Below are positions 333-55,980 of a DNA stretch of 64,000 nucleotides, one piece after another. The translations under genes were made by a program, and so were the position numbers. The notes beneath the pieces were generated by a model. It had not been told where the DNA came from. It saw only the letters and a program-made list of their open reading frames with translations, and did no database searches. Source of the DNA: Bacteroidota bacterium (GTDB lineage: Bacteria > Bacteroidota > Ignavibacteria > UBA10030); NCBI GenBank assembly GCA_035390885.1, contig DAOOUW010000007.1, positions 84 to 64,083 of the forward strand. The letters are read 5' to 3'. The stretch's first letter is position 1; each line of letters starts with the position of its first letter.

Positions 333-412
333 GGATTCAATGCGGACTATCGCTACCTCAGCCATCTTCAGGGGAACAGTTGCTGAGATGCCGTAAGGCA
401 AATCAAAGCAAC
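333..412 (+). repeat. Structured intergenic repeat, copy D (most diverged of four copies)
   Basis: About 80 nt aligns with 44399-44478, 55899-55980 and the reverse complement of 48115-48196. Shared blocks are ACTATCGCT, CTCAGCC and GTTGCYGAG..GCCGTAAGGC..RAGCAAC. The 146..421 ORF is just a translation of this element. Confidence 0.6.
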
Positions 413-537
413 CATTTTTGAAGGCATTGCATATAGAAACAGGATTAAAATTTTTCCCTTTCAACAGCGAGCTCATAGGTTTCAAGGCCGCTTTTACCTT
501 TGCTATTTTCTACTTTATATAATGAGGCAATCTAAAT

Positions 538-1230
538 TTATCTCGCAGGAGATTCTTTATCGGCGTCTGGCATTTCAGTTCCATGGTGCTTCACAATTCG
601 CGCTTTCGTCAGAAAAATAATTTCTTCTGCAATATTTGTTGATAGATCCGCCACACGTTCGACATTTCTGCTGATACGAATAAACTCCAGCGCCGCTTCG
701 ATGCACGACGGATTTTCTTTGACAAGTTGAATGACTCTTCGCGTTACCGCTCTATTCATTTCATCGATTGTATCATCGGCAACTAAGACGTTGTTGGCAA
801 GGACTGCATCCAGTAAAATAAAACCATCGAGAGCGTCTTTAAGCATGGTTCGCGTCAATTTTGCCATTTCGATGATTTCCGGGAATAATTCAACTTGCTC
901 AAATTTTTCGAGATTGAGCGCCGATTGGGCAATGTTGACAGCGTGGTCGCTAATACGCTCGAGATCATTGTTAATCTTTTGTGCGGCAATAATCAATCGT
1001 AAATCACGCGCGACTGGTTGTTGAAGCGCCAGCAAATCCAAGATGGTATTATCAATTTCAATTTCAAGCGCATCAACTCGCTTATCGGTTGTAATGACAG
1101 ACATCGCTAATTCTTCATCCCGATTTTCTACTGACTTCATTCCTGAAGAAAAATTTTCTTCAACCATGCTTCCCATTTTAATTAGCAAGGTTTTCAAAGT
1201 TTCTAATTCCTTTTGAAAGTGTCGTTCCAT
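538..1230 (-). CDS. phoU: Phosphate signalling/transport regulator PhoU
   Basis: 230 aa with two-repeat PhoU helical architecture (DxxVD.., ERIxDHAxNIA / ERVADLSTNIAE). Last gene after pstSCAB. Confidence 0.9.
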   Translation of the reverse strand: MERHFQKELETLKTLLIKMGSMVEENFSSGMKSVENRDEELAMSVITTDKRVDALEIEIDNTILDLLALQQPVARDLRLIIAAQKINNDLERISDHAVNIAQSALNLEKFEQVELFPEIIEMAKLTRTMLKDALDGFILLDAVLANNVLVADDTIDEMNRAVTRRVIQLVKENPSCIEAALEFIRISRNVERVADLSTNIAEEIIFLTKARIVKHHGTEMPDADKESPAR

Positions 1231-1238
1231 CTCATCTC

Positions 1239-2066
1239 CTATCCGAATCTTCCCGTAATATATTCTTCTGTTTCTTTTTTGTTTGGATTCGTAAATATTG
1301 TTCGCGTCGCATCGTACTCAATTAACTCTCCCATATAGAGGAATGCTGTAAAGTCGCTGACTCGTGCAGCTTGCTGCATATTGTGCGTAACAATTACGAT
1401 TGTGTAGTTTTTCTTTAATTCATAGATCAATTCTTCGATTTTAGCAGTCGAGATCGGATCGAGAGCGCTTGCTGGTTCATCCATTAGCAGTACTTCCGGA
1501 TTTACCGCAAGGGCTCGCGCAATGCAGAGGCGCTGTTGCTGTCCACCCGAGAGACTCATGCCGCTTTTCGAGAGCGAATCTTTCACTTCATTCCACAACG
1601 CCGCCTGTCGCAAACTTTGTTCTACAATTTCTTCGATATTCTTTTTGCTATGGACGCCATTCATCCGCAAACCTGCCGCAACATTATCGAACACAGACAT
1701 TGTCGGAAATGGATTTGGCTTCTGAAAAACCATTCCAATACGGCGGCGAACAAGTACCGCATCCATTTCGTAAACATCCTTTCCATCGAGTAATATTTTA
1801 CCGCTTACACGCGCCTTCGGAATAGTCTCATGCATGCGATTGATGGTTCGAAGGAACGTTGATTTACCGCATCCCGATGGACCAATAATTGCAACAACAG
1901 AATGTTCTGGGATTTCCATAGAAATATTTTTAATCGCCTGAACATTTCCAAACCATGCCGAAACATCGCTTGCAATTATTTTACTTTCGTGAACGGAAAT
2001 ATCTTTCTTCATTGATATGAGCTCTGAATCAATTTTTATTTGTGGCACATATTCCTCTGCTATCAT
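1239..2066 (-). CDS. pstB: Phosphate ABC transporter ATP-binding protein PstB
   Basis: Walker [10 protein letters not shown], signature LSGGQQQR, Walker B LLMDEP. The start is taken at the internal ATG (2066), which forms an ATGA overlap with the pstA stop. The track ORF runs to 2171 but that extension overlaps pstA. Confidence 0.9.
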
Positions 2067-33163: not shown

Positions 33164-33176
33164 AGGAAAAATCCTT

Positions 33177-34362: not shown

Positions 34363-34377
34363 AGATTTCTTCCCTTT

Positions 34378-35619: not shown

Positions 35620-35712
35620 CTTTCGTTAGCAAGCCATCATTATCATACGCAAAATCTATTGTATGACTTATTTAATCTTAGAGAGATTACCAAATGTTGT
35701 TATGAAACATTA

Positions 35713-36261: not shown

Positions 36262-36270
36262 ACTTTTCTC

Positions 36271-42200: not shown

Positions 42201-44106
42201 TAATCGTGTTTTGTCCAATTGCTAACGGCAAGCGATAACTAAACGTCCCATCTCCTTCTACCACTACAGCATTTCCATTGACGGTTAACTCTACAGATGT
42301 TAAGTCCGAGACCGTTCCACTTACCGTTACCACACTATCTGCCGTAACAGCTCCATTTGCTGGACTCGTTATCGTTAATATTGGCGCTTGCGTATCTTTT
42401 GTGACTGTCCGCACTACTATACTCTGATTCCCTACTGCATCCGTCGCCCTTATCTCAAATTCATTCTTCCCTTCAACTAATTCAAACGTCCCTCCAAATG
42501 TACCATCTCCTGCAACCGCTAACTCAGCGCCATTGACCGTTACTTTAACTCCTGTCGAATCATGAACCTCGCCCCCAACTACTACATCAGGCTGATTCGT
42601 GATATAATTCTCCGGCGGTAACGATACTCGCAACTCCGGCGATTCTGTGTCTAATCGCACCATTCGCTCTACCGTCGTACTGATCCCCCCTCGATCTATC
42701 GCTGTAACTACTATTCTATTTTTGCCTTCCTTCAACGTCAGTACTTTATTGAATGAACCATCCATCTCTACCGCTGTTGTATCGCCGTTGACGGTTACTA
42801 CCACATCTGTGATATCTTCTACCATACCACTGACTGTTACTGCTACTTCCCTTGTAATATATCCATCCTCTGGTTCGGTTATCGTAAGCTCTGGCGCTCT
42901 TGTATCTCTGATAACAACTCGTGCTTCTGTCAGTGTCTTTGAACCACTTGTGGCTACAATCGTGATAATATTCTCGCCTTCGCTCAGTTTTACCGGAACT
43001 GTAAATGAGCCGTCGCTGGTTGTCTGTACATCGATCCCATTGACTTTCACTGTCGCTGGCGCTGTAACCTTTCCTTTGACTACAACTGTTGTATCTCCTG
43101 TAATTACTCCATTGGCAGGTTCTTCTACGATTAACTTTAACTCCTGCTCTCCCTGCCGTGTTACCGTTCGTGTCTTCGTCGTACTATTCCCAGCCGCATC
43201 GTCTGCTGTTACCTTTATTATGTTCTTACCAATTCCTATTGGAACTTCTTGTTTGAAAAATCCATTGCATCCGTTATTGACTCTTATCTCTCTCCCTTCA
43301 TTGACTCTTATGGTTACTTTCGTTCGCGTCTGGTCTTCCACTCTTCCGCTTACCGTAACGATGCTATCTGTCGTTATTGTATTATTTGCTGGTGTGAATA
43401 TCGCTAATCTCGGCGGTAGGATGTCTCGTATCACTGTCCGCATTACCGTCGCTGTATTCTGTGCGCCATCTTTCGCCACAACAACAATGAGGTTCTTCCC
43501 TTCATGTAAATAGATCTTCCCGCTGAAATTACCGCCTCTATCTACTGGGAATACTATTCCATTGACTATCACCGAGACTATTTTCCCATTATCGGGATCG
43601 TAGACATTCCCGCTTACTCTAATGGTCTTCTCTTTTGTAATCGTCCGGTCTTCTGGTTCGGTCACTGTCAATACCGGCTTCTTTGTGTCCAGTACTACCT
43701 GTCGTGTCAGTGTTGTCTTCATTTGCCTGCTATCGGTGGCTTCGACTGTTATCGTGTTCTTCCCTTCTTTTAACATTATCCATGTCCCAAATTCACCTTT
43801 CCTATCAACTCCAACTTCTATGGCGTTCACCCGCACTCTCACAGGAACTCTTCCTTCCACTCGTCCATTTACAAGGATTCTCGGATATCTTGTTACCAAT
43901 CCTTCCGAAGGATTGTAGAGGATGATCTTAGGTTCTACCACTGCTGGCTTTACCGGCTTTGATTGCGCTTCTTGTCCGTTGTGCATCAAGAGTAGAGCGC
44001 TCTCTTTCGATTGAGAGATGACTTCTGCATTCGGTACTAATAAACCTAGAATGACAAGAATACCGAGTACAAAAAACGATAGTACAACATAGATTGATGG
44101 CTTCAT
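36271..44106 (-). CDS. Giant teneurin-like RHS/YD-repeat polymorphic toxin with Tlde1/YkuD-like C-terminal toxin
   Basis: 2611 aa. Elements in order: N-terminal signal/anchor helix; seven ~95-aa Ig-like repeats; CarboxypepD_reg/TTR-like segment (VRITILNHPEYGHTLTRTDGMFD); NHL repeats (GNGxxGYSGDGGxA..L..P.G.AVD..G..YIAD); many YD repeats; core end DPIGFGGG..DPINLFDRKGFQ; 133-aa tail with GKGRLPEGIY and LRIHPDAPPEGTEGCIGV. Confidence 0.9.
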   Translation of the reverse strand: MKPSIYVVLSFFVLGILVILGLLVPNAEVISQSKESALLLMHNGQEAQSKPVKPAVVEPKIILYNPSEGLVTRYPRILVNGRVEGRVPVRVRVNAIEVGVDRKGEFGTWIMLKEGKNTITVEATDSRQMKTTLTRQVVLDTKKPVLTVTEPEDRTITKEKTIRVSGNVYDPDNGKIVSVIVNGIVFPVDRGGNFSGKIYLHEGKNLIVVVAKDGAQNTATVMRTVIRDILPPRLAIFTPANNTITTDSIVTVSGRVEDQTRTKVTIRVNEGREIRVNNGCNGFFKQEVPIGIGKNIIKVTADDAAGNSTTKTRTVTRQGEQELKLIVEEPANGVITGDTTVVVKGKVTAPATVKVNGIDVQTTSDGSFTVPVKLSEGENIITIVATSGSKTLTEARVVIRDTRAPELTITEPEDGYITREVAVTVSGMVEDITDVVVTVNGDTTAVEMDGSFNKVLTLKEGKNRIVVTAIDRGGISTTVERMVRLDTESPELRVSLPPENYITNQPDVVVGGEVHDSTGVKVTVNGAELAVAGDGTFGGTFELVEGKNEFEIRATDAVGNQSIVVRTVTKDTQAPILTITSPANGAVTADSVVTVSGTVSDLTSVELTVNGNAVVVEGDGTFSYRLPLAIGQNTITISAVDTFGQTTSEIRKVKREGEALPPDPATVAPPIDLTVPTTVFNSTSFLYTGDNPIQRGVDSGTIDPIRVAVLRGKVMERNLSPLSGVRITILNHPEYGHTLTRTDGMFDIAVNGGGTIVLNYSKDGYLTVQRKVNTPLLDYFVVDSVIMVKLDPNVTIVNTSDSAQIVQGSIVIDERGTRRATLYFRQGTTAKMIKKAYRIDSVLDGCICRKVRVLDDSTVQELPLMSVRATEYTVGEAGPASMPAELPPTSAYTYCVELSVDEAIAAKAGEVIFDKPVSLYLENFLGFPVGTIIPVGFYDRESGMWIPSPNGFIMKIVGIVDGLAQIDLNGDDIAEPQDSLLAALFDRKELEKLTEMYSVGQTLWRAQIEHFSPCDLNYALWVSQYEISQDQTTSGLPDANSNKPKDPKGNCKGGSIIRVQDQLLGEIVSINGTPIDLCYDSKRTDGYKEANRISIPLTQENVSQNLQWIDVKIQIAGQTSNYRYQPGENIICDYLWDGKDAYGREIQGEQPYTVEITYYTKIFYRLHKKCYDRFFYIIIGSDAEFAGYVTSEECYPDTSTFSFIRGTKKISTGMVGRNSALPFNLGGFSIGIHHIYDPNSRTIYYGSGGIESADYYGPKITKVNGTEGNGIQKVAIGNDGTIYFTHSFDNRVYRRCTTGYVSVLAGNGNSGYSGDGGPAVNAELNSPTGLVVDEDGTVYIADQNNHVIRKVDPYGIITTIAGTGSSGYNGDNILATQAQLSYPTDVELGPDGAIFIADAGNYRVRRIDVNGYIATVAGTGEFGYSGDGGLATLAQLGDIEGIAVSCDGKVYIADYWNNCVRLVNQSGVIIRFAGNGEFGFSEDGGRASEVQMGGPFDVAIGRDGIVYICDVDYNVVRYVKPNGRTGTLAGSIKGFEYVEGGSAKRTSLGRLEDIAVSNDGVVYVSTDNNTVCDASITSLTSFYDEEFYHWIVRIEPVFQGTTLTEKFIPSSDGSELYFFDENGRHMKTFDALTGIRLYSFIYDTTGHLQSILDVDSLATTIKWDGQGRLQSFISPYGQKTDIVLDSVGLISSIRNPAGELFRYTFTQDGLMTSFTDANGNVHSFLYDSVGRLVLDMDPAGGFTALDRSQFSTGFEISVKTAEGRQSKYRLENLPIGGIKRTSTDEAGRTTVDIIPGDGTITSILSDGTTIKTEYSPDPRFGMQAPLTTTITTLPSGLESRVEQYRTISQMTGMEVTGLTDSVVVNDRVYKTIWDGANKLFRSISPEGRETFSWINEKGRVIKDSIPGIEATYYSYNPKGQLITVTQAGRTASYTYDNRGWLATATDPIQRVSRFEYDSVGRITRQVLPDGHEILYTYDANGNLTTLIPPARPAHGFEYNKVDLTTLYAPPVLGTDTLNTRYEYNKDRDVVRVIRPDGGVIETLYDSTGCGSCGPVGRPKKILFDRGALTFGYNPITGTLDTLISPEDTLLYSYDGTLPTSVTWRGGVVGTVSVTYDENLRVTSQSINGNNTIDFAYDNDGLLTKVGAMDITREAATGRISGTTLGNVTTSQSYSTLGELASYHAKYGTNTIFGTNYQRDSLGRITQITEAVEGVATVKRYSYDIAGRLEKVWRNDTLVSVYIYDANGNRISHWTSSRVDSGSYDAQDRMLSYGNAQYFYTPNGELKMKVEGTDTTFYTYDYFGNLKTVILPNKDRIDYIIDGQNRKIGKKVNGQIVKKWIYSGQLTPVAELDSTGNITARFAGSYMIKDGNTYQLITDHLGSVRLVVDVATGTVMQRLDYDEHGNVSYDSNPDFTPFGFCGGLYDNQTKLTRFGARDYDAETGRWTAKDPIGFGGGVSNLYEYCLNDPINLFDRKGFQVIYGQESPSNIVMTFNGNTLTIKTNVGNGIIIGMYPAISGPYGKGRLPEGIYEATNLRRRTMKGMVCPGEEMGWSIDLSDAPGRDYLRIHPDAPPEGTEGCIGVLCSVSEDFYNQVKPYFEAGTPMVYLYVQY
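42150..43930 (-). repeat. Seven tandem Ig-like domain repeats within the main RHS gene (protein-level periodicity ~285 nt)
   Basis: Recurrent pattern P.L.(I/V)T.P.....T....V.VSG.V.D......V.VNG......DG.F......L.EG.N.I.V.A.D..GN. Confidence 0.7.
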
Positions 44107-44349: not shown

Positions 44350-44527
44350 CACCCCGTCCTTCGGACACCCCTCTACAAGAGGGGAATTTTGTAGAGGTGA
44401 CTTCGATCAGGATTATCACTCTACTCAGCCGCCGTCAGGGAATCGGTTGCCGAGGTGCCGTAGGCGTATCGAGGCAACGGACTACTCTGGTTTTCTCACC
44501 CACGGGTGAACCCGTGGGTTACAAGTG
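44350..44527 (+). repeat. Structured intergenic repeat, copy A (core 44399-44478) with flanking GC hairpins
   Basis: The core aligns with copies B, C and D. 5' hairpins: GTCCttcgGAC and CCTCTACAA-(10 nt)-TTGTAGAGG. 3' hairpin: CCCACGGGtgaaCCCGTGGG (44498-44519). Lies between the rhs start and the gspF stop. ORFs 44195..44509 and 44271..44696 are translations of it. Confidence 0.7.
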
Positions 44528-44548
44528 GTTGTACCGTCTTCCCAACAT

Positions 44549-45649
44549 CTATCCTCCAACGGCACCTACCACTTCGAACATTGGCATATACATCGAAATA
44601 AGAATGAATGCAACTACCAAACCTAAGAATAGAATGATAACAGGTTCAATAATTGATGAGAGAGTATCCACAGTTAAATCTATTTCTTTTTCATAATAGT
44701 CGGCTACTTTCAATAGCATTGTATCGAGTTCGCTGGTCTCTTCACCCACTGTAATCATTTGCGCGACCATCGGTGGAAAAAGCTTCGATTCTACTAATGG
44801 CTCCGCTACTGCTTTCCCTTGTTTGACCGCACGAATGATTATTCCAATTTCATTTTTAATTTCCTCTATCGTAAACATCTTTTGCACTACTTCAAGCGCT
44901 TCAACTAATGACACTTGCGCTTCCAATAATGTGCCTAATGTTCTGCAAAATTGCGCTACGTAGTGTTTGAGAATCGTGCTTCCAAAAAATGGAAGACGAA
45001 TCAAATAGGATTGTAACTTAGCTTTTACAGCGGGATTCTTCAGAAAATTTCTGAATGCAAATCCTAACACTATCAACAAAATAACTGCATAAATTCCGTA
45101 TGCCTTCACACCATCGCTTAACTCCACCACAAATTTCGTCATAGCTGGCATTTCAACTTGAGAAGTCTTGAACATCTCAGCAAATGCAGGAATAATGAAC
45201 AAGAGCAAAAACAACACCGCCGCAATTGCAACCGTTAAGACTAACGCTGGATATGTTAATGCTTGCCGGAATTTCTTCTTCAATGCATTGATCTTTTCAA
45301 GATGCGTTGCAAGCTGTGCAAGGACAGACGGCAATCTCCCGCTCTCCTGTCCAACTTCAACTGTAACCACAAATAAATTATCGAATACTTCTGGATAAGC
45401 GTTCAAAGCTTTTGCAAAGGATTCGCCGCGCTGAATTCTACTTAAAAGACCTTCGATAACTTCCTTCATCCTTTCATTTTTAGTTTGCCGGGCAAGCACT
45501 TCTAACGAACGATGCAGCGATACTCCTGCCTGTAACATAACAGCTAATTGAGTTGAGAACTCAACTTTATTCTTCTCGGTAACTTGCGTCCGCTTCAGAA
45601 AAGTAAAAGAATCTTTTTTCGTAACTTCTTTTTTATTTTTTTTATCCAT
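44549..45649 (-). CDS. gspF: Type II secretion / type IV pilus platform protein (GspF/PilC family)
   Basis: 366 aa with two T2SSF repeats and three TM segments. Confidence 0.85.
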   Translation of the reverse strand: MDKKNKKEVTKKDSFTFLKRTQVTEKNKVEFSTQLAVMLQAGVSLHRSLEVLARQTKNERMKEVIEGLLSRIQRGESFAKALNAYPEVFDNLFVVTVEVGQESGRLPSVLAQLATHLEKINALKKKFRQALTYPALVLTVAIAAVLFLLLFIIPAFAEMFKTSQVEMPAMTKFVVELSDGVKAYGIYAVILLIVLGFAFRNFLKNPAVKAKLQSYLIRLPFFGSTILKHYVAQFCRTLGTLLEAQVSLVEALEVVQKMFTIEEIKNEIGIIIRAVKQGKAVAEPLVESKLFPPMVAQMITVGEETSELDTMLLKVADYYEKEIDLTVDTLSSIIEPVIILFLGLVVAFILISMYMPMFEVVGAVGG

Positions 45650-45678
45650 AATGAAATGTTAATGAAATTTATAGTTTT

Positions 45679-46185
45679 CTATCTCTTTACATAAAAATCC
45701 GATTTCGAACTTGGTGTTGTCGTTGCAACTATTTCATATTGACAATTTGCCCATCTCGATTCCGCCAAAATGCTTATTCGATATTGCACGGAATTCATTC
45801 CTCTAACTTCTTCTCTTACCTTCACTAAAAATACTTTTGCCTTCTGAGGCGTAATATCCACTCCATTTCTACTTATTCTCCATCTCTTGTCCAAATCTGA
45901 GCTCTTCACAAAATCATATCGAATCTCTTTATCGAATTCCCTTGTCAATACAAGCGACGTATCCGTCAAGCTCACTCCTGAACTGGTCTTCTGAATATCC
46001 ATCGCCATAAGCGTCAAGATACGCCGAACATCGCCTTTCATTTCTGTAGAACCGTTCCACCTCTGAAACAATTCATTCGTAAACTGAAAGAGAGCAAAAC
46101 TCATGCTTACTAAAATTGAGCCTACGATGAGAACTACTAAAATTTCCTGAATCGTAAATCCATCTGTTTCCTTCAGTACTTTCAT
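45679..46185 (-). CDS. Minor pseudopilin (prepilin-type N-terminal cleavage/methylation domain)
   Basis: N-terminus ..TDG/FTIQEILVVLIVGSILV. Confidence 0.7.
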   Translation of the reverse strand: MKVLKETDGFTIQEILVVLIVGSILVSMSFALFQFTNELFQRWNGSTEMKGDVRRILTLMAMDIQKTSSGVSLTDTSLVLTREFDKEIRYDFVKSSDLDKRWRISRNGVDITPQKAKVFLVKVREEVRGMNSVQYRISILAESRWANCQYEIVATTTPSSKSDFYVKR

Positions 46186-46547
46186 TCATACTCCAGAAAA
46201 GTTCTAAACAATTCCACTAATAATTCCTTATCCTTATTTCCACTCCAGACCAACACTCTCACTTCGACAAGCGATTCCGACTTTGTAACGATTCGCTGAA
46301 TAACGAGGCCATGGTCAGCCGGTTTTACCGCCGCAGTAAAATCTTTATTGCTTGAAATTTCATTCATTTCAGAAATAGCCAAGAGAAAAGCTTTATTCTT
46401 AAGTTCAACTCCTCTATCGAACATCAAGTTCCCCATCATTGTTATCATTGGAATAAGAACGCTCAAGAATAGAGCCATTGCAACAAGCGTTTCGATAAGA
46501 GTATAGCCAGACTCCTTCTTAAAAATATTTTTAAGATTTAATACCAT
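46182..46547 (-). CDS. Minor pseudopilin (GspI/J-like)
   Basis: N-terminus ..ESG/YTLIETLVAMALFL. 4-nt overlap with the next gene. Confidence 0.7.
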   Translation of the reverse strand: MVLNLKNIFKKESGYTLIETLVAMALFLSVLIPMITMMGNLMFDRGVELKNKAFLLAISEMNEISSNKDFTAAVKPADHGLVIQRIVTKSESLVEVRVLVWSGNKDKELLVELFRTFLEYE

Positions 46548-47953
46548 TCTAACACATCCAGTTTATTCGATTTGCCAAAACCTGTTGGAACAAGATATGA
46601 AAGAGGAAGTTCCTCCCTGTTAATATGTCCAGTTCTAATCCAACCCATATACACTGTTGGCGCTTCATAGAAATAAAATTCTTTCGTCAAGACAGTGCCA
46701 GCGACAGAACCATCAAGAGTTATAGCGCCTTCGCACACAACAGCGCCAGTAACTTTAGCGCCTGGCTCGATATTGATAAGAGTATTTTGAATCGGCAAAT
46801 TCCCTTCTGTTAACAAAGCAAGAGCCCCTTCCACCAGACTTCCATTCCTTAATGTAATTCCTTGCCCTGCGATCTTCGAATCGTCCGATTGAAATGATAC
46901 AACGGTTGAGGGATAATCGAGTCTTGCTCCCGATGAAATCTCTACCGCAGGCGCAAGGATTTGTCCGCTGAAAGTACAATTGCTGTCAACTTGAACTAAT
47001 GTACTACTGAAAAGAATTGCAGATTGTATCGAGACATTATGAGGAACGACTATTTCCTCCCGCGACAATATTGCAACAAGTCCCTTGAGTTCAGCGCCTT
47101 GCTCGAAGATTACTCTATTGCATAAAATATACAATGGCTTGGGTCGTCTCTTGACATAATTATTGATAACAAGATTTCCATTTACAACAATGGAATTCAA
47201 CTCATCTGTAACAGAATTATTATCAAGGATAAAGGATGAACCAACATACTTGCTGTTTCCCCAGCTCGATGATATTTGTGCCTCACCTTTCTGAATCTTT
47301 GCGAAATATTCGACTTGCTGTTTCCATCCCCCAAGCGACAACGACGGCGAAATTTCTCTTTTGATGTTTCCTTCAATTGGCTTCTTTAGAGGCGCAGGGA
47401 AATTAGCAATAGTTCCAGTAGTAACTCCGCTTATTCCCGTAATAACATTTCCTTTTATTTGAGCAGACCCGGTCATTACAAGCTGATGTTCGGTATTTGC
47501 AAAGTAAAGTGCATTTTCAAATTGACTCGTTGGCATATTCGCAATAACAGCATGCCGTTGAGTTCTTACACGACCGACCCAACCTTCTGAGAATATTGCG
47601 TAGTACAATCCCCAATGTTGGATTTTAACAACAGCTTTTCCATTTTGTCCAAAATCATACTCTCTCGCAATCTCCATTCCAAATTGAGGCGATATTGCAT
47701 GGGAATTCAATTCCACAATAGCTCGATTGACTCCGTCAATCGCCGCATAATCTGATTTGACTTGAGCAACGCTCAACAACGCATTCTGTTGATAGAAATA
47801 TTTAAGCATCACTATGGAAAGAATAAGAAGAGAGAGAATAGTAATCATATAAAGTACAGAAGGTAGTGCAAATCCCTCCTGTTTCTTAAGGATTATTTTT
47901 CTGCCAAATAAAATCAACTTAGAAAACAATTGATGTTCTCCCTTTTTCTTCAA
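46538..47953 (-). CDS. Large GspK-like minor pseudopilin with predicted beta-helical body
   Basis: N-terminal QEGFALPSVLYMITILSLLILSIV has the GspK-type helix without Glu5. The remainder has repetitive (V/I)xGx(V/I) segments (IKGNVITGISGVTTG; KVTGAVVCEGAITLDGSVAGTV). Confidence 0.45.
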   Translation of the reverse strand: MKKKGEHQLFSKLILFGRKIILKKQEGFALPSVLYMITILSLLILSIVMLKYFYQQNALLSVAQVKSDYAAIDGVNRAIVELNSHAISPQFGMEIAREYDFGQNGKAVVKIQHWGLYYAIFSEGWVGRVRTQRHAVIANMPTSQFENALYFANTEHQLVMTGSAQIKGNVITGISGVTTGTIANFPAPLKKPIEGNIKREISPSLSLGGWKQQVEYFAKIQKGEAQISSSWGNSKYVGSSFILDNNSVTDELNSIVVNGNLVINNYVKRRPKPLYILCNRVIFEQGAELKGLVAILSREEIVVPHNVSIQSAILFSSTLVQVDSNCTFSGQILAPAVEISSGARLDYPSTVVSFQSDDSKIAGQGITLRNGSLVEGALALLTEGNLPIQNTLINIEPGAKVTGAVVCEGAITLDGSVAGTVLTKEFYFYEAPTVYMGWIRTGHINREELPLSYLVPTGFGKSNKLDVLEWY

Positions 47954-48114
47954 TATAGCGCTAATCCAAGAATAAAATATAGATTCTTGTAATTCAACTC
48001 TTTCCTTGAATTTTTATTATTGGAATCTTAAGGGACGTTGCAGAATTATTGGACTATTTAGCCTTTCTCAATTTTATTATTTCCCAGTTTATACATTAGA
48101 AATTTGCAAAGACT

Positions 48115-48196
48115 GTTGCCTCGATACGCCTTACGGGACCTCGGCAACCAATCTACCGACAGTGGCTGAGCAGAGCGATGGCACGTATCAATGCCC
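48115..48196 (-). repeat. Structured intergenic repeat, copy C (inverted orientation)
   Basis: Its reverse complement aligns with the cores of copies A and B. Lies in the divergent promoter region of the secretion cluster, in sense orientation to the minus-strand pseudopilin operon leader. Confidence 0.7.
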
Positions 48197-48413
48197 ATTT
48201 TAGTTCCTTTTCTCTACTTCTTCATTTCTATAGTCCATTCTTCCCCTAGTACATCTAATTTACTATACCCAACATTTTTATTGGACATAATACCTGCCAT
48301 TCTTAATGAGCTATTACATATTACACGATTTTTTCCATACTTGAGAAATATTTGTAATAATTGTATAATAGGTAGAAGGTAATTCAAAGTGCAATAGTAA
48401 AGGAGGTTTTTCC

Positions 48414-48833
48414 ATGAAGAAAAGAAATATTAACTTTTATTATTCTTCATCTGGATTTTCTTTAACCGAGCTGATGGTTGTACTTGTCATCATCGGTGTT
48501 TTGGTTCTTCTGGCGATGCCGAAACTTCTTCCAATTGTTACAAAGGCAAAAACAACCGAGGCAAAACTCATGCTCAAACAGGTAATAACGCTAGAGCAAA
48601 GTTATAAATTCGAGAACGATCGATATTCGAACTCACTTGCCGAAATCGGCTTCGAGCAGTCGAAACTTATATCAGAGGGAGGTCAAGCACGATATAAAAT
48701 CGAAATTACTTCTGCTGATGAAAAAAGTTTTGTTGCACGAGCTATTTCGACGGTAGATTTCAATAATAACGGTGTATACAATGTATGGGTTGCCGATGAA
48801 ACAGGAGCTATAAAAGAGGAAGTCCCAGATTGA
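48414..48833 (+). CDS. gspG: Major pseudopilin/pilin (GspG/PilA-like)
   Basis: 139 aa, SSG/FSLTELMVVLVIIGVLVLLAMP. AAGGAGG ribosome-binding site upstream. Confidence 0.8.
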   Translation: MKKRNINFYYSSSGFSLTELMVVLVIIGVLVLLAMPKLLPIVTKAKTTEAKLMLKQVITLEQSYKFENDRYSNSLAEIGFEQSKLISEGGQARYKIEITSADEKSFVARAISTVDFNNNGVYNVWVADETGAIKEEVPD

Positions 48834-48839
48834 CAAATC

Positions 48840-49631
48840 ATGCCAGAATATATTTTTATATTATCCTTGTTAGGACTCTCCTTAGGTAGTTTTCTTACCA
48901 GTTGCACTTATCGAATACCACGGAAAATATCAATAATGCTTAGCTCGTTCTGCCCACGCTGTCATAAAAAATTACAATGGTATGAATTAATTCCCGTTAT
49001 TAGTTATGTTATTTCCAACGGTAGATGCCGAGGGTGTAAACAAAGGATTAGTTTTTTATATCCACTTACCGAACTTATTGCAGCAGGAATTACAGTTACC
49101 ATTTTTTTAAAATATGGAATCACGTGGATAACATTTGAGTTGTTGTTTTTTTTCTTGATATCATTTACAATTGCCGTTATCGATTGGAATTTTTTGAGCA
49201 TCCCTAACATTATTCTTCTTGCCGGGCTAATGATTGGAATATTCTTGAAAGCTGTTCAAGGGAAAGATGTAGTTGTTACTTCACTCATTTCCTCATTGAG
49301 TGCATTTGCTACTCTATTGGCGGTGATGATCGTTGGAAATGCATCTTTCAAAAAACAAACAATGGGCAGCGGCGATGTAAAGTTAGCAGGAATTATTGGA
49401 CTTTTCCTCGGATACACAAATTTTCTGATTTCACTTTGGATTTCTGCAATTATAGGCTCTCTCTTTGGTGTCATCATGAAAAATAAAAAAATAGATATCG
49501 ACGATAGCGGTGACAATTTGGAACTTAAAATTCCTTTTGGAGCTTTTTTCTCAATTACTTCTTTCTTTATCTTATTATTTCAGAACAATGTAAAAGAAAT
49601 TGTAAATCTATGTCTAATAGCGCATCTTTAA
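48840..49631 (+). CDS. pilD: Prepilin peptidase (A24 family, PilD/GspO)
   Basis: CPRC..CRGC zinc motif, multi-TM body, and the GSGDVKL aspartate motif. Confidence 0.85.
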   Translation: MPEYIFILSLLGLSLGSFLTSCTYRIPRKISIMLSSFCPRCHKKLQWYELIPVISYVISNGRCRGCKQRISFLYPLTELIAAGITVTIFLKYGITWITFELLFFFLISFTIAVIDWNFLSIPNIILLAGLMIGIFLKAVQGKDVVVTSLISSLSAFATLLAVMIVGNASFKKQTMGSGDVKLAGIIGLFLGYTNFLISLWISAIIGSLFGVIMKNKKIDIDDSGDNLELKIPFGAFFSITSFFILLFQNNVKEIVNLCLIAHL

Positions 49632-51103
49632 AAATTGATCAAGAGGTATTGAAGCTCATTCCAAAGCAAATGGCTGTGGATTTGTGTGTATTGCCGCTTT
49701 CAAAAGATGATGGAGCCATCCACATTGCAATGGTTGAAAACTACGACAGAAAAATCTTGAATGAACTTTCCTTTGTATTGGGCAAAAAAATAGTGGTAGA
49801 GATTTTTCCACAGGATGTTCTGGTTGAAGCTATAAAGCAGCACTATGGTTTCTCGAATTTTGAAACAATAAAATCGGAACCCGAAGAACTAAATTCCGAA
49901 TTTGTTTCATTAAAGGAAGAGGAAAAGAAAGTAGAATTTTCATCGGATGGCTCAGTAGTATCGTTAGTGAATAGAATTATTACTGATGCAATCGATATGG
50001 GAGCAAGCGATATTCATGTCGAGCCTTATGAAAAACAACTGCGGATTCGATATCGTCTGGATGGAGTCTTGCATGAAATACATCAGCTATCGGTAAATAA
50101 AGCAAAGCCTATTATTTCTCGTTTGAAAATTATGGCAGATTTAGATATTGCGGAAAAGAGAAGGCCTCAGGACGGCCGTATAAGAGTAAAACAAAAAAAT
50201 CGTGTCATCGATATACGTGTATCAACACTACCAACCGATTTCGGTGAAAAGGTGGTACTTAGGATTCTCGATAAATCTCAACTTCAACTTGATTTATCGA
50301 AATTAGGATTCGAAGAAAATGATTTGAATAAATTCAAACGAGTGTTGCACCTGCCGTATGGTATGGTGCTTGTAACAGGTCCAACTGGAAGCGGAAAAAC
50401 TACAACGCTCTACGCAGCGCTCAATTATATTAGTAGTCCAGAAATCAATATCACAACCATCGAGGATCCCGTTGAATATAATTTACCAGGGATCAATCAA
50501 ACTCAGGTACGATCCGATATCGGCGTAACCTTTGCAACAGCATTACGAGCAATTTTACGACAGGATCCAAATGTTATTATGGTTGGAGAAATCAGAGATG
50601 GTGAAACTGCCGAAATTGCAATACGATCGGCATTAACCGGACATCTTGTGCTTTCTACTTTACATACAAACGATGCTCCTTCTGCAGTAACGCGTCTTGT
50701 GGATATGGGAGTCGAACCATTTTTAGTAGCGTCTTCTTTAAAGATGATCCTTGCGCAAAGACTCTTACGGCGATTGTGTAACAAATGCAAAATGCCGGTA
50801 AAGCCATCTCAAGATATTATTCAGGAAATTGGCGCCAAAAATATTAAAGATAATGTAGTATATTACGAACCAGCCGGTTGCCCTGAATGTAATCATCTGG
50901 GATATAGAGGTCGTACCGCTGCTTATGAAGTTCTGCTTCTAGAGGAAGGATTACTGGAGCATATTGGGAAAAATGTAACTGCGACTGAGGTGCGCACTAT
51001 TGCAAAGAAGGAAGGTATGCTCACTTTGAGGCAATCTGCACTGTTAAAAGCTGAACGTGGGGAAACTTCTTTAACGGAAGTAGTAAGAGAGACCACTCAA
51101 TAA
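49610..51103 (+). CDS. gspE: Secretion ATPase GspE/PilB family
   Basis: T2SSE_N domain, Walker A GPTGSGKTTT, Asp box, Walker B, His box, and a tetracysteine CNKC..CPEC motif. Confidence 0.9.
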   Translation: MSNSASLKIDQEVLKLIPKQMAVDLCVLPLSKDDGAIHIAMVENYDRKILNELSFVLGKKIVVEIFPQDVLVEAIKQHYGFSNFETIKSEPEELNSEFVSLKEEEKKVEFSSDGSVVSLVNRIITDAIDMGASDIHVEPYEKQLRIRYRLDGVLHEIHQLSVNKAKPIISRLKIMADLDIAEKRRPQDGRIRVKQKNRVIDIRVSTLPTDFGEKVVLRILDKSQLQLDLSKLGFEENDLNKFKRVLHLPYGMVLVTGPTGSGKTTTLYAALNYISSPEINITTIEDPVEYNLPGINQTQVRSDIGVTFATALRAILRQDPNVIMVGEIRDGETAEIAIRSALTGHLVLSTLHTNDAPSAVTRLVDMGVEPFLVASSLKMILAQRLLRRLCNKCKMPVKPSQDIIQEIGAKNIKDNVVYYEPAGCPECNHLGYRGRTAAYEVLLLEEGLLEHIGKNVTATEVRTIAKKEGMLTLRQSALLKAERGETSLTEVVRETTQ

Positions 51104-51184
51104 GAGAGGAGATGTTTTTCAAATAAAATCAATTACTGATTTTAATGAAATTTGAAGAAAGTTTGCCATTTCAAGGAGGTTTAT

Positions 51185-53311
51185 ATGAAAATTAAAATAA
51201 TATTCTTAATCACTTTCATTATTACAAATTCCATAAATCTATTTTGCCAGCAAGCCGATACCCTGCAACAGAGATTTCGTAAAATGCCTCAAAGACAGCC
51301 GTTCCCTCAACAGGTTCAGGATAAAACAATCCAAAGTCAATTAATGGGAAAGGGTACCGAACAGTCGATACCTACCGATGTTTCAAGTGAGTCTACTGAA
51401 ATGCAAAATGCCGATTCTTCACTTATCGTACCTACACCGGTTGATACAACAATGATAGAATCTGAAAGTATGTCAAAGGAAGGAAAAGGTCCCGAAATAA
51501 AAAAAGAAATCGAATTACCGCAGGGCGCAAAAGATAGTACCACACTAAGTTTTCGAGATACAGATATAAGAGATATTTTTCGAGGATTAGCGCTCCAGCA
51601 TAAGTTGAACATCTTTGTAGATAACAGCATTAATAAAAGAGTAACGATATCGCTTAATCAAGTGCAAGTCTATGAAGCTATTAAATTTATTTGTGAGCAA
51701 AACAATTTAAGACTCGAAATCGAAGGTGGAATCTTCAAAGTATTGCCCCCTCTTCCACTTCCAAAGCCCGTCCCTCCTCCACCAAAAGTACCAATGGTTT
51801 ATTATGAAAATGGCCTTTTATCCGTCTGGCTTAAAAATGATGATCTAGAATCTGTTATTACAGAAATACAGAAGAAGTCCGGGAAAAATATTCTCATCCT
51901 GAGCGGAACTACAGGGTCATTGAGTGGAAATTTGAAGGACGTAGATTTCGATATAGGCTTTACGCAGTTATTGAATAATAATGGTTTTGCCGTTCAGAAG
52001 AAAAATGGAATTTACATCGTTAGTCGTCTGGATTATTTTGTTGGTCAACAACAAGCACCTCAAGGACAAAAAGCTGGTCCATACTGGATTAGCGTTAAAG
52101 ATTCAGTTGTTACGTTAGATGTTACCAATGCGCCACTGGAGCGAGTCATTGCGGATATGATCCGTCAGTTGAATACGGATGTGGTGTTCTATAATACAGT
52201 TACAGGCACCGTTACAGCAAGGGCAACAAACGTTAATCTTGATAAGGCTCTTGATATCATTTTGAGAAATACGAATTATGGATATCGTGAATCAGAAGGA
52301 ATCTATTTTATTGGCGAGAAGACGAATAAAGCTTTGATGGCTACAAAGCTTATAAAGCTGAAGTACCTTAGAGCAGATAAAATTATAGAAAGTGTACCTC
52401 AATCAATTTCTTCTCAAGCAACAATTAAAGTAATGAACGAACATAATGGAATTGTCATCATTGCACCAAACGATGTTATCTCTGAAGCAGAAGAATTTAT
52501 TCAACAAATAGATAAACCAGTCGCACAGGTATTGATCGAAGCGATTGTTGTAGATTTTGATAGAACAAAAGCTCTTGATTTAGGGGTGAAGGCAGGGTAT
52601 CTAAGTTCAGGCGATTCTACGGTTTCTTTTTCAAGAACAGATATGGTTGTCCCGAATGTTGATATGATGTTTTCTGCAAATCAACTTAATAATGCTTTAC
52701 AAAACGTTGGCGCAGTAAACATCGGTAAGCTCCCCAATAATTTCTTTGTACAATTAAAAGCCATGGAGCAACGCGGCGTCGCAAATATTCAATCTCGACC
52801 ATTGCTTGCGACTCTCAATGGGCATCCTGCAACATTGAGTGTTGGTACAACTTTCTATTTCAAGCTTTTGACAACCACCTCTCTATATAATGTTGGGCAG
52901 GGCTATTTACCTCAAACGAGCGAACAATTTACAACAGTCGAAGCTGATACCAAATTGGAAATTACACCCTACGTAGGTTCTGATGGACAAATAACTGTCG
53001 AGTTGAAGCCAGATTTTAAGACCCCGATTGGAACACCAAGTAATGGAATTCCGCCAACGATCAATCGACGAGCTCTTTCTTCAACATTGGTTGTTCGGGA
53101 AGGCGAAACAATTGTCGTCGGTGGATTGATTCAAGAAGTAGAGAATGTATCGAAAACACAAGTGCCCATTCTCGGCTCGATTCCTTTATTAGGGTATCTC
53201 TTCTCTTCCACCAATAAGAGTACTAACAAAACTGAATTGTTAATTTACATAACTCCTCATATTTCATTTGGTGAAGAGTTTCAGAATGTGAGCTTACCTA
53301 CACAGAAATAA
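51185..53311 (+). CDS. gspD: Outer-membrane secretin (GspD/PilQ family)
   Basis: Signal peptide, proline-rich linker PLPLPKPVPPPPKVP, N-domains, and a C-terminal secretin domain (..VVREGETIVVGGLI...VPILGSIPLLGYLF). The start at 51185 follows AAGGAGGTTTAT; the track ORF begins at a TTG at 51152. Confidence 0.85.
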   Translation: MKIKIIFLITFIITNSINLFCQQADTLQQRFRKMPQRQPFPQQVQDKTIQSQLMGKGTEQSIPTDVSSESTEMQNADSSLIVPTPVDTTMIESESMSKEGKGPEIKKEIELPQGAKDSTTLSFRDTDIRDIFRGLALQHKLNIFVDNSINKRVTISLNQVQVYEAIKFICEQNNLRLEIEGGIFKVLPPLPLPKPVPPPPKVPMVYYENGLLSVWLKNDDLESVITEIQKKSGKNILILSGTTGSLSGNLKDVDFDIGFTQLLNNNGFAVQKKNGIYIVSRLDYFVGQQQAPQGQKAGPYWISVKDSVVTLDVTNAPLERVIADMIRQLNTDVVFYNTVTGTVTARATNVNLDKALDIILRNTNYGYRESEGIYFIGEKTNKALMATKLIKLKYLRADKIIESVPQSISSQATIKVMNEHNGIVIIAPNDVISEAEEFIQQIDKPVAQVLIEAIVVDFDRTKALDLGVKAGYLSSGDSTVSFSRTDMVVPNVDMMFSANQLNNALQNVGAVNIGKLPNNFFVQLKAMEQRGVANIQSRPLLATLNGHPATLSVGTTFYFKLLTTTSLYNVGQGYLPQTSEQFTTVEADTKLEITPYVGSDGQITVELKPDFKTPIGTPSNGIPPTINRRALSSTLVVREGETIVVGGLIQEVENVSKTQVPILGSIPLLGYLFSSTNKSTNKTELLIYITPHISFGEEFQNVSLPTQK

Positions 53312-53319
53312 TCTGGTTG

Positions 53320-54747
53320 ATGAAGAATCCACTGCAACAAATCGACGTCAAGAAAATTGCCGGTGTAAAGAAAATTCTGGGAATAAATTTCGATGAACAT
53401 CGCGCTCGGATTGTCGAAGTTCAGCAATCTATAAAATATTCAAAAAAGAATGCATCAACGTATAAAGCGCTAAACTCTTTTACAGTTAATTTCAATGAAA
53501 ATTCTTCCTGGTCTGAAAAAGGAGAGGCAATTAAAGTAGCCCTTGCTCAACGAGGTATCACTACTCCCTACGCTGTTACAAGCATTCAATCGCTAGGAAT
53601 AAAAATAGTTGAAGTGAATATCCCACCTGGTACCCAGGATTTCGATGAATGGATCATGGAGAACCAAGAGAAACTCTTAAAGTATACAAATTCATCGGCG
53701 AAAATAGTTTATGTCTATAAAATATTAGAAGAAACGGATCAAGGATACCGAACAGAAATTTGTTTTGTGCGACAAGAACAAATCGAAAATTATACAATTG
53801 CACTAGAGAAAGCTGGATTGAAGATCCTTTTCATGGATGTAGGAATATCGGATGCACTCTATGCTTTGGAAGTTGAAAAAAATGCACTAAATGTAAAATT
53901 AGAGAAAACGATTTTTGTTTATGTCCAGGAACATCAATTCATTATAATGAAAATACAAAATGGGAAAAGGATATCTCTGTCCGTACAAGACGCTCCTGAA
54001 AATAGTAACATTTCGGATGAATTATCAAATATACTTCCAAACGAAGATGATGTTGAGGTCATTTTAACAGGCGATGTCGTTCAAACACAATCATATCGAG
54101 TTCTGAATCCGTTGGGATGCACTCCAGAGTATGCGCTTGCTGTGGGTTTGGCAATCCGAGGGTTTTCATCATCAGCGAATGAAAAATCACTTTTGCCCGA
54201 TTCAGAGAGAGAACAATTAGAAACTTCTTTAATGAAGTCGGTTTTCCAGAGAGTAACAATTTTATTGGGCTCGATAGTTTTACTCGCCTTGCTTTTGCAA
54301 TATGTGACAGATTATATCATTACCTCTAAAATGGAAGGAATGGAAGAACAGTTATTGCAGAATGGCAGTTCTTATGCTGAAGTACAATTACTCGAGAAAC
54401 AAGTACAAGAACTTAAACAGCAGTTACAAGGGAAAGGAGCGTTGGTTAAATCTTCTCAATATGCAAAATTCCTTCACGATATTGCAGCGGCTATTCCTGA
54501 AGGCTCATGGCTCTATAGATTAAAAGGTGGAGAGAATACAAATGGCTCGTCGGCGTTTTCACTTTGTGGATATGCCGAGAATACTGAAAAAGTTACAGAA
54601 TTACTACGCTCATTATATGAGAAAAAATTCGATGTAAAGCTCATTCGCTCTGGCAATCAATTGCCGGCTGAAAGTCTTGTGCCTATTCCTTCAGGAAAGA
54701 AATTCATCACTTTTGAAATTCAGGTATCTTACCGTTCAATAGAATGA
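53320..54747 (+). CDS. PilM-PilN fusion / GspL-like assembly protein
   Basis: Has a cytoplasmic actin-like N-domain, one TM helix (VTILLGSIVLLALLLQYV) and a coiled-coil periplasmic domain. Confidence 0.55.
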   Translation: MKNPLQQIDVKKIAGVKKILGINFDEHRARIVEVQQSIKYSKKNASTYKALNSFTVNFNENSSWSEKGEAIKVALAQRGITTPYAVTSIQSLGIKIVEVNIPPGTQDFDEWIMENQEKLLKYTNSSAKIVYVYKILEETDQGYRTEICFVRQEQIENYTIALEKAGLKILFMDVGISDALYALEVEKNALNVKLEKTIFVYVQEHQFIIMKIQNGKRISLSVQDAPENSNISDELSNILPNEDDVEVILTGDVVQTQSYRVLNPLGCTPEYALAVGLAIRGFSSSANEKSLLPDSEREQLETSLMKSVFQRVTILLGSIVLLALLLQYVTDYIITSKMEGMEEQLLQNGSSYAEVQLLEKQVQELKQQLQGKGALVKSSQYAKFLHDIAAAIPEGSWLYRLKGGENTNGSSAFSLCGYAENTEKVTELLRSLYEKKFDVKLIRSGNQLPAESLVPIPSGKKFITFEIQVSYRSIE

Positions 54748-55280
54748 AAGAAACGAAAAAATATCGGTACCTCACGATTATCGTGATAATTTGCTGCATC
54801 TATGTATTTGCAACAGAAGTCGTTAATCGTTGGAGTGCAACGCTAAAAAATCATGATGCCCTTATGGAGCGAAGGAAAACCGTCCTTACCCCCGAAGAAC
54901 TGATGAACAAAAAAATGGACTTGATTGCCAGAAAACGCATGCTTACAGCTCAATTGACGCAGGGAGAAACAGGATACGAGCAGAATCAGATTGGCATTGT
55001 AAAACATATCAATACTTGCGCAGAGAAATCGAATATCCTACTGCGTTCATTGACGCCTCTCGAAGCAAAGCGCCTTGGACAGATTGTTGAGCACAGTTTT
55101 AAATTAGAAATGAACGGTACCTACCATCACATAGGTCAGTTTATCAATAAACTCGAGACAGGGGGAATTCCTGTTAAGATCACGCAAATAGATATCGTTC
55201 TTCAAAACTCCCATTCCCAAGTACTAGAAGCAACTTTAGAAGGGAAAGCGTATGTACTATCGAAAGAATCAGCAAAATGA
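54744..55280 (+). CDS. PilO/GspM-like bitopic assembly protein
   Basis: 178 aa with an N-terminal TM helix, a coiled coil and a ferredoxin-like tail. Its start overlaps the upstream gene's stop. Confidence 0.45.
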   Translation: MKETKKYRYLTIIVIICCIYVFATEVVNRWSATLKNHDALMERRKTVLTPEELMNKKMDLIARKRMLTAQLTQGETGYEQNQIGIVKHINTCAEKSNILLRSLTPLEAKRLGQIVEHSFKLEMNGTYHHIGQFINKLETGGIPVKITQIDIVLQNSHSQVLEATLEGKAYVLSKESAK

Positions 55281-55741
55281 GAGCAAATAAGAAAATTACA
55301 TACTTCCTTGCTGTCGTTCTGCTCATTGTGTGGGGAGCTATCGGATATCAGATTATCACTGCTTTGAGTCAAAAAGATGATGACGAAGGAACGATTGCGA
55401 CCACTTTCGATGTTGAGAAAGATTTTAAGAAATCAAGTTATCTCTATATTGATGACGTACGTGATCCTTTCAAATTTAGTTCTTCAGTAAAAGCGGAGTC
55501 AACGAGTAGAGTGAGGAAACCCGCTATTGCTTCCCCTATCAATGTGCCGCCGCCGTTCCGATTGACCGGCATAGTATTGGATAAAAATAAAAAAACAGCG
55601 ATGCTCGAAGGCTATAATGGAAGCGTTTACTTCTTGCACGAAAATGATACAATCGATGGCTTAAAAATTCTAAAGATTACCGAGAACGAAGTAAATTATT
55701 TTTGGCGTAAACAAAAAGGGAAATGGGAATTGACAGAATAA
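55277..55741 (+). CDS. PilP/GspC-like protein
   Basis: 154 aa with an N-terminal TM helix and a C-terminal beta domain (LTGIVLDKNKKTAMLEGYNGSVYFLHENDTIDGLKILKI). Confidence 0.45.
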   Translation: MRANKKITYFLAVVLLIVWGAIGYQIITALSQKDDDEGTIATTFDVEKDFKKSSYLYIDDVRDPFKFSSSVKAESTSRVRKPAIASPINVPPPFRLTGIVLDKNKKTAMLEGYNGSVYFLHENDTIDGLKILKITENEVNYFWRKQKGKWELTE

Positions 55742-55814
55742 AGTGAAATTATTTATTTCACGCAGATAGTACAATTTGGCGCATATATTTTTCAATAGAA
55801 AAGAACAACAATTA

Positions 55815-55980
55815 CCCCCCCCTCTTCAAGAGGGGAATAATTCCCCTTCTCAGAAGGGGTGTCAACCGAAGGTTGACGGGGTAGTCTATCATGGCGGTGG
55901 CTTCGATACAGACTATCGCTCACCTCAGCCACCGTCAGGAAATCGGTTGCCGAGGTGCACGAATTGCATATCGAATCAAC
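55815..55980 (+). repeat. Structured intergenic repeat, copy B (core 55899-55980) with three 5' GC hairpins
   Basis: 5' hairpins: CCCCTCttcaaGAGGGG, CCCCTTCtcaGAAGGGG and GTCAACCgaaGGTTGAC, followed by the core. Lies between the secretion operon and rhs2, in sense orientation to rhs2. ORFs 55776..56021 and 55891..56085 are translations of it. Confidence 0.7.

Follow-up and report, generated by a model that had tools for sequence, protein, structure and literature searches.

A stretch of 64,000 nucleotides from contig DAOOUW010000007.1 of a Bacteroidota bacterium, called the window here, carries a gene cluster resembling type II secretion systems (T2SS) and type IV pili (T4P), together with Rhs genes. 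The genes that matter for the present study are gspF, rhs1, a 471-aa gene with a pilin gene divergent from it, a 154-aa gene and rhs2. Four homologous cores of about 85 nt, and no others, lie in the window in mixed orientation. A preliminary description had placed them at 333, 44399, 48115 and 55899, and they are numbered here as copies 1 to 4 by window position (Table 1). These positions were borne out in three ways. A degenerate 33-nt pattern matches only at 357-389(+), 44424-44456(+), 48138-48170(-) and 55924-55956(+), where 0.02 matches are expected by chance; MAFFT aligns the four cores over about 85 nt, in keeping with the alignment of about 80 nt given earlier; and a covariance model run with filters off returns only the four copies, at 90.9, 90.5, 84.5 and 67.2 bits. 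The gene contexts originally assigned to them were confirmed as well. The analysis below suggests that the cores are the inner parts of old, degenerate copies of a MITE (miniature inverted-repeat transposable element).

A dispersed family in one lineage

Nineteen metagenome stretches match the exact pattern, and all but L014, which was rejected as a high-GC chance match, come from activated-sludge and digester assemblies. With the covariance model, built from 21 distinct copies, about 25 distinct copies were found in approximately 220 kb of metagenome contigs and the window. The contigs with copies belong to an uncultured Bacteroidota/Ignavibacteria-like organism or to close strains, and the best named matches of the 6PGD protein are 'Bacteroidetes bacterium' (99%) and 'Ignavibacteriales' (82%). 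The genes that neighbor the cores elsewhere are unrelated to those in the window and include a TonB receptor, DsbD and phoU, and the orientation is mixed. Behind a co-directional upstream gene, nine copies are sense and three antisense, and the other copies lie between divergent or convergent genes. Contigs of other assemblies end inside the cores (at window positions 412, 44437-44483, 48133 and 55856), which is the usual sign of a multi-copy repeat.

Close relatives lack the element. No copy was found in 75 kb from relatives with 86-91% identical 6PGD, including the syntenic pho/6PGD region, where the pho-6PGD synteny is retained and phoU directly abuts the next gene. The covariance model also found none in or near homologous secretion clusters (L107-L110), whose 471-aa homologues are 37-67% identical, and other phyla, sampled as 1.3 Mb of T2SS-ATPase loci, gave none either, with the T2SSE-based GTDB loci at 42-60% identity. 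Absence from the clusters and syntenic sites of the relatives means that the element is not a conserved leader of these operons. Scanning of GTDB genomes with the exact pattern gave no match, which means that this collection either lacks the organism or has it masked. No match came from viral contigs or from blastn searches of plasmid and phage collections, and no description of this family was found in the literature on repeats and MITEs of Ignavibacteria. Its occurrence is confined to a single uncultured Bacteroidota/Ignavibacteria-like lineage of sludge and digesters.

Anatomy of the unit and signs of mobility

The best-preserved copies show the core enclosed in a discrete unit of 197 nt. 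From 5′ to 3′, the unit consists of CCAGATTATGCAATAAAG, some 65 nt of purine-rich spacer, the core of about 85 nt, a tail AGTCTTTACAAGTTTC, and TAATGCATAATTTGG(A). Its ends are imperfect inverted repeats, CCAGATTATGCAATA/TAATGCATAATTTGG, in which 14 of 15 positions pair in L022 and L015, and which reach about 22 nt in some copies. The units at L022:442-638 and L015:7544-7740 are both exactly 197 nt long and 96% identical, with flanks at random-level similarity. Unit lengths range from 197 to 243 nt, with one 441-nt copy that contains an insertion, and the whole unit folds with z = -4.5. Other copies have extra GC hairpins between spacer and core (CCCCTCTnnnAGAGGGG, CCCCTTCTCAGAAGGGG and GTCAACCGAAGGTTGAC), and 3′ of the core either the CCCACGGGTGAACCCGTGGG hairpin or a long hairpin of about 170 nt.

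No protein is encoded by the unit. The sole frame that crosses the core is broken by stops or frameshifts in several copies: L008 contains a stop, and length variants of P4, the apical hairpin of the core, shift the frame. An ATG-initiated frame of 34 codons was considered as a small peptide and rejected on these grounds and on a 1-nt deletion in copy 3; the compensatory stem changes ignore codon position, which also argues against a peptide, and a six-frame peptide query found no long protein homologue. A Bacteroidota-type promoter in the tail (TTTG...TAnnTTTG) was likewise rejected, the spacing being 15 nt instead of about 19-21 and the -7 box imperfect.

Mobility is indicated by a nested insertion in L015/L125, where a full unit lies inside another, diverged copy of the core. 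The plus strand reads ...GGTTGCCAAAATGCT-GTAAA-(unit)-GTAAA-CGTATCGAGGCAAT, and in L015 the detail is ...CTCAGCCGCCATCAGGAAATCGGTTGCCAAAATGCT GTAAA (TCCAAATTATGC...GCATAATCTGG) GTAAA CGTATCGAGGCAATAGCCTGCAAGTTT..., with the unit in parentheses. When the unit and one GTAAA are removed, the remainder is colinear with the consensus GGTTGCC-GAGGTGCCGTAGGC-GTATCGAGGCAAC-AGTCTTTACAAGTTT over about 75 nt. This reconstruction of the empty site in L015 proves that 5 bp of target sequence within the P4 loop were duplicated. The nested arrangement occurs in three independent assemblies (L012, L015 and L125), and L125 stems from the same sample as a contig carrying the window sequence and has similar coverage. 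Other 5-bp direct repeats flank further units: TTAAA in L020 and L022, ATTAA in L025, and TAAAC around a 59-nt mini element in L018. The mini element consists of only the two MITE inverted repeats.

Prokaryotic MITEs are shorter than 500 bp and have terminal inverted repeats (TIRs), direct repeats at the flanks that become less distinct as the element ages, AT-rich intergenic targets and structured transcripts (PMC10969869, section 2.1). The family described here is short and non-coding, possesses TIRs and a target duplication with an empty site, and has sharp boundaries at multiple loci. Judging from these features, the element is probably a new MITE family whose window copies are old and degenerate, and we put the probability of this at about 0.78. 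A mobile element of MITE or REP type had been among the options of the preliminary description; its MITE part draws support from the TIRs, the 5-bp duplications, the nested insertion, the dispersed copies in mixed orientation and the absence from the syntenic sites of relatives. The covariance-model search that it had proposed as a check turned up about 25 further copies in mixed orientation, and 5-bp target duplications are present.

In the window itself, the inverted repeats are degenerate remnants, with both arms in copies 1 and 3, the 3′ arm only in copy 4, and none in copy 2. Because their own ends are degenerate, the membership of the window copies in the MITE family rests on the homology of their cores and modules to TIR-bounded units. 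The TTAAT and TTAAA around copy 1 match in four of five positions, form the sole duplication candidate among the window copies, and are consistent with an aged target duplication. The spacer of copy 3 is about 75 nt longer than in full-length units, and the core of this copy is identical in six other assemblies. The CCCACGGGTGAACCCGTGGG hairpin of copy 2 also stands 3′ of the core in L017 and in L004; in L015 and L010b it is adjacent to the cores or interrupts them. The hairpin block of copy 4 recurs 5′ of the cores in L013, L018, L019 and L021.

Several points weigh against the MITE assignment. In no window copy do intact inverted repeats and a clean duplication occur together, copy 2 being without either, and no presence/absence polymorphism between strains was seen at the window sites. 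The exact placement of the duplications is uncertain by 1 nt from unit to unit, and the AT-rich flanks raise the level expected by chance. No autonomous insertion sequence (IS) with matching ends was found, nor any TIR pair 0.8-2.5 kb apart in the examined loci. Moreover, the 9:3 excess of sense copies and the compensatory changes in the stems P2 and P4 of the core, described below, are not accounted for by a plain neutral MITE alone.

If the MITE assignment is correct, the units would be mobilized in trans by a DDE-type transposase recognizing the inverted ends; a lead to its family may be offered by IS1380-type elements, which have CC ends and 4-5-bp duplications. The core would be cargo and not a part of the transposition machinery, because a duplication also borders the 59-nt derivative, which retains only the ends. 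Existing copies would receive insertions of small GC hairpin modules and of other units, or recombine with them, which may have produced the mosaic flanks seen in the window. Where the core is transcribed along with neighboring genes, it could fold in two ways, as a four-way junction or as the 34-nt hairpin of the preliminary description. If the flanking T2SS-like or Rhs genes are affected at all, this would be incidental, for instance through structure at the mRNA 3′ end or as a substrate for recombination, and not dedicated control.

Table 1. Positions of the element parts in the window and of related modules in other loci (L numbers).
Feature	Position	Strand	Remarks
TTAAT just outside copy 1 5′ TIR	252-256	+	Read from sequence
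Copy 1 degenerate 5′ TIR CCAGAATATGTAATAGAG	258-275	+	3 mismatches to family 5′ TIR CCAGATTATGCAATAAAG
Copy 1 purine-rich spacer, 5′ TIR to core	276-327	+	Homologous to spacer of full-length L022, L015, L010
Copy 1 core	328-415	+	Most diverged of the four; GUUGCU/AGCAAC variant; covariance model R1 67.2-67.3 bits, E ~1e-18
Copy 1 degenerate 3′ inverted-repeat arm TTGCATATAGAAACAGGA	427-444	+	TTAAA comes next, at 445-449
Copy 2 GC-rich hairpin modules CCCCGTCCTTCGGAC, CCCCTCTACAAGAGGGG, 5′ of core	44352-44393	+	Same modules inside TIR-bounded L020, L019c
Copy 2 core	44394-44481	+	Between gspF stop and rhs1 start, antisense to both; R1 90.5 bits
Copy 2 hairpin module 3′ of core, CCCACGGGTGAACCCGTGGG (tail type 2)	44499-44518	+	Same hairpin elsewhere in family
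Copy 3 3′ TIR TTTCTAATGTATAAACTGG (- strand)	48084-48102	-	3 mismatches to family 3′ TIR
Copy 3 core	48112-48200	-	Divergent region between 471-aa gene and pilin gene, sense to 471-aa operon; R1 84.5 bits
Copy 3 5′ inverted-repeat remnant GTAATATGTAATAG	48311-48324	-	Alignable to CAGATTATGCAATAA in full-length units
Copy 4 three GC-rich hairpin modules CCCCTCTTCAAGAGGGG, CCCCTTCTCAGAAGGGG, GTCAACCGAAGGTTGAC and linker GGGGTAGTCTATCA	55815-55893	+	
Copy 4 core	55894-55983	+	P4 variant GCA-CGAAU-UGC; between 154-aa gene and rhs2, sense to both; R1 90.9 bits
Copy 4 degenerate 3′ inverted-repeat arm CTTCTATTGCAAAAATTGG	56037-56055	+	4 mismatches to family 3′ TIR
GC-hairpin mini-modules	44352-44384, 44499-44518, 55819-55877		Also in L018, L019, L020, L021, L026
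Long-hairpin module, ~170 nt	L018 7425-7600; L019 1800-1940 (-); L025 1482-1600		
59-nt mini element	L018 7615-7673; L019 1723-1781; L021 11177-11235		Flanks TAAAC in L018, TGAAC/TAAAC in L019 and L021
IS200-family element with flanking hairpins CCCTGYGGCTTGCCRCAGGG	L111 11191-11710; L019 10683-11200		Second copy in L019

Several families of GC-rich hairpins of 17-21 nt (CCCCTCTnnnAGAGGGG, GTCAACCGAAGGTTGAC and CCCACGGGTGAACCCGTGGG) occur only inside or beside MITE copies, and one such hairpin interrupts the core at L010 11983-12067. From their sequences they look like mini-modules that insert independently. A second repeat module, the imperfect long hairpin AAGAAAAATATGG...CCATATTTTTCTT of about 170 nt, stands 3′ of some cores and is common to several loci. 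The three 59-nt copies sit in the same larger composite repeat of about 700 nt, which contains two cores.

Fold of the core and competing explanations

Consensus-like cores, of which L010 7369-7457 is an example, fold as a four-way junction. It is built from P1 (GCUUCGAU/AUCGAGGC), the 4-bp hairpin P2, P3 (CUCAGCCACCG/CGGUUGCCGAG) with conserved A.C and C.U mismatches, and the GNRA-capped hairpin P4. The fold of the L010 core reaches -36.8 kcal/mol with z = -3.4 against shuffles, and that of L008 has z = -4.6. The preliminary description had proposed a single shared hairpin, GUUGCCGAGGU...AUCGAGGCAAC with P4 on top. This hairpin reuses the 3′ strands of P3 and P1, and the two folds are therefore mutually exclusive. 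The hairpin is the minimum free energy (MFE) structure for three of the four window copies, where it is no better than shuffles (z = -1.0 for copy 1, and +0.4 and -0.6); the MFE structure of copy 4 uses P1 and P3 and has z = -2.1. Paired cells of the alignment amount to 82-83% for the junction and 90% for the hairpin, and both folds are compatible with the alignment. The hairpin is thus a genuine folding option, but only one of two, and consensus-like copies prefer the four-way junction.

Direct reading upheld most details of the hairpin. The outer helix GUUGCC/GGCAAC is indeed changed to GUUGCU/AGCAAC in copy 1, the apical hairpin is replaced by GCA-CGAAU-UGC in copy 4, and GC-rich hairpins precede copies 2 and 4. 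The tandem G.A/A.G pairs hold in general, except in copy 1, where the second pair is A.A, and the apical GCC-GUAA-GGC is found as described except in copy 2, where the loop has 3 nt (GUA). A competing helix, CAGCCR/YGGUUG, had also been suggested; it contains an A.C mismatch in most family members, and the CUCAGCCACCG/CGGUUGCCGAG register fits the family better.

The compensatory changes reported for the apical hairpin are real and extend over the whole family. The closing pair of P4 is C-G, A-U, U-A or G.U, its loops are GUAA, CGAAU, CGAAG, CUAAG, AGACU or GAAA, and its U.G pair becomes U-A or C-G in some copies. P2 shows two-sided changes as GAGC/GCUC versus GGAC/GUCC, that is, two double changes. 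In the model-fitted alignment, 21 cells carry two-sided changes, where 7.4 are expected and none of 500 shuffles gives as many; these perhaps go back to about five or six independent changes in copies that are related. G.U and A.C counts (68 versus 49) favor neither strand, and truncated, interrupted and P2-less copies persist. The structure appears to be a real folding potential with some evidence of maintenance. The cause of the maintenance could be a function as RNA or single-stranded DNA (ssDNA), or correction by template switching at quasi-palindromes.

A functional structured RNA is the first alternative to be weighed. The core would then be a multi-copy small RNA, or a switch in a 3′ untranslated region or leader, in the form of the junction or the hairpin; its spread by the MITE would be secondary, and its fold would be under selection. 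The excess of compensatory variation in P2 and P4, the folding of consensus-like copies far below their shuffles, the GNRA-type loops on the sense strand only, and the preponderance of sense copies behind co-directional genes all agree with such a role. However, the core is confined to one species-level lineage, and orthologous sites in relatives are without it. Its orientation and neighbor genes are mixed, several copies lie between convergent terminators, three window copies fold at the level of shuffles, and defective copies are retained. The G.U and A.C counts point to no strand, and the few independent compensatory changes could stem from quasi-palindrome template switching. Rfam 15 gave no match at gathering thresholds over the whole window, and under permissive searches (E <= 10 and E <= 5) nothing overlaps the core in a window copy or in consensus-like copies, in agreement with the earlier statement that the element belongs to no known RNA family. 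ARAGORN found no tRNA-like gene in the window and in six loci with consensus-like copies. We regard a functional RNA as unlikely, and the dedicated regulatory RNA among the earlier options is not supported. A bolder form of the idea, on which we would stake slightly less still, is that the core is a functional four-way junction that switches to a hairpin like domain V of group II introns and, as cargo of the MITE, has seeded a module for RNA processing, stability or regulation behind many operons. It would be a new RNA class spread by transposition.

The likeness to domain V serves as a lead only. The 34-nt hairpin shares with domain V a long lower helix, a 2-nt bulge in the 3′ strand, an upper helix of 3 bp and a GNRA loop. 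It differs in having no AGC/CGC catalytic triad at the base of the helix, and the family consensus prefers the other fold. No other intron domains and no reverse transcriptase were found nearby, and the Rfam intron models gave no match.

Alternatively, the element could be of the REP/BIME (repetitive extragenic palindrome/bacterial interspersed mosaic element) or IS200 type (Y1/HUH), moved as folded ssDNA by the IS200-family TnpA located about 270 nt from copy 1. A gene for a 144-aa Y1 transposase does lie just past the left edge of the window (L111 11249-11683), with a second, 99% identical copy in L019; the modules around the cores are rich in hairpins, and maintenance of hairpins would suit the recognition of ssDNA. 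IS200/IS605 elements have no terminal inverted repeats and make no target duplications, whereas the MITE units carry both. The nearby IS200 copy has end hairpins of its own, CCCTGYGGCTTGCCRCAGGG, unlike every module of the element; the boundary shared by the IS200 copies begins at L111 11191, well outside the element; and the Y1 protein corresponds to the IS200 equivalog NF033573, an ordinary IS200 transposase and not a REP-associated tyrosine transposase (RAYT), of which none was found. On the end hairpins, the IS boundary and the equivalog match, an association of the element with this IS200 was rejected, and mobilization of this type is very improbable. The IS200 element occurs at least twice, and after both of these copies come some 2 kb of nearly identical sequence that, on reading, looks Rhs-repeat-like.

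Least probable of all is dedicated cis-regulation of the T2SS/T4P-like and Rhs operons by an element that stands at the borders of the cluster and at its divergent promoter. In favor of it, the cluster is flanked or divided by three of the window's four copies, and two of these are sense to downstream operons, but the homologous clusters of relatives contain no copy, most family members stand beside unrelated genes, and copy 2 is antisense to both of its neighbors. For the same reasons of neighbors and relatives, the proposal that the copies mark the borders of the secretion cluster describes an incidental position.

Genomic surroundings, related repeats and significance

The cluster is arranged differently in relatives. 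In a distant relative it is colinear, a single co-directional row in the order secretin, PilN-like, PilO-like, 153 aa, 461 aa and 119 aa. Compared with it, the block from the 471-aa gene to gspF is inverted and moved upstream in the window, and cores are found at both junctions; the clusters of other relatives are arranged differently again. This fits repeats that accumulate at rearrangement points or promote them, and causation is not claimed. Comparison of window 44549-55741 with L109/L110 shows the T2SS/T4P-like cluster split and partly inverted, with MITE copies 3 and 4 at the break points.

Three further observations concern this region. Downstream of the 2611-aa Rhs gene (36271-44106), the window at 28800-37300 (-) contains four to six tandem segments of 130-300 nt that are 63-95% identical, 1.2-3.3 kb apart and located among short open reading frames; their arrangement resembles a row of Rhs C-terminal toxin-immunity cassettes that have been displaced or orphaned. 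The 139-aa prepilin at 48414-48833 (+) gives a weak match, below the threshold, to the receptor domain of ComP for DNA-uptake sequences (PF16732, E = 1.5e-4, 23 bits where the cut-off is 27.3). In addition, L004 5495-5702 is a hybrid of copy 2 (window 44393-44560) on a low-coverage contig. From about 44438 rightwards, the 3′ part of the hybrid and its downstream flank match the window without a difference; the remainder of the core and the gene upstream differ. The hybrid is either a product of recombination within the repeat or an assembly chimera, and was not used as evidence.

Among known repeats, the family resembles the prokaryotic MITEs of Neisseria (Correia), Coxiella (QMITE1/2), Porphyromonas gingivalis and Cardinium, which are likewise below 500 bp and non-coding, with imperfect TIRs of 15-22 nt and short target duplications. 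They also insert in AT-rich intergenic sites, occur in many copies, are restricted to lineages, and give transcripts predicted to fold stably (PMC10969869). The new family differs from them in showing no sequence similarity in plasmid and phage collections, and in an interior that is not one long palindrome but a purine-rich spacer with a GC-rich core of about 85 nt. That core has four-way-junction potential and some compensatory variation, and GC hairpin modules are nested in the copies. With the REP/BIME sequences of enterobacteria and pseudomonads, the family shares short GC-rich hairpins and variable intergenic mosaics, often behind genes or between convergent ones; unlike them, it has TIRs and target duplications.

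For annotation, no regulatory role toward the secretion or Rhs genes should be assigned to the four structured elements. The MITE copies explain why assemblies of this organism are fragmented at these points. The flanking regions can be flagged as prone to rearrangement, because the T2SS-like cluster is split differently from that of relatives and Rhs cassettes lie nearby. For the study of bacterial repeats the element is of modest interest, which would grow only if the core does act as RNA. Our study adds a probable MITE family from an uncultured Ignavibacteria-like bacterium, with an unusual GC-rich core that can form a junction and with hairpin modules nested in its copies.

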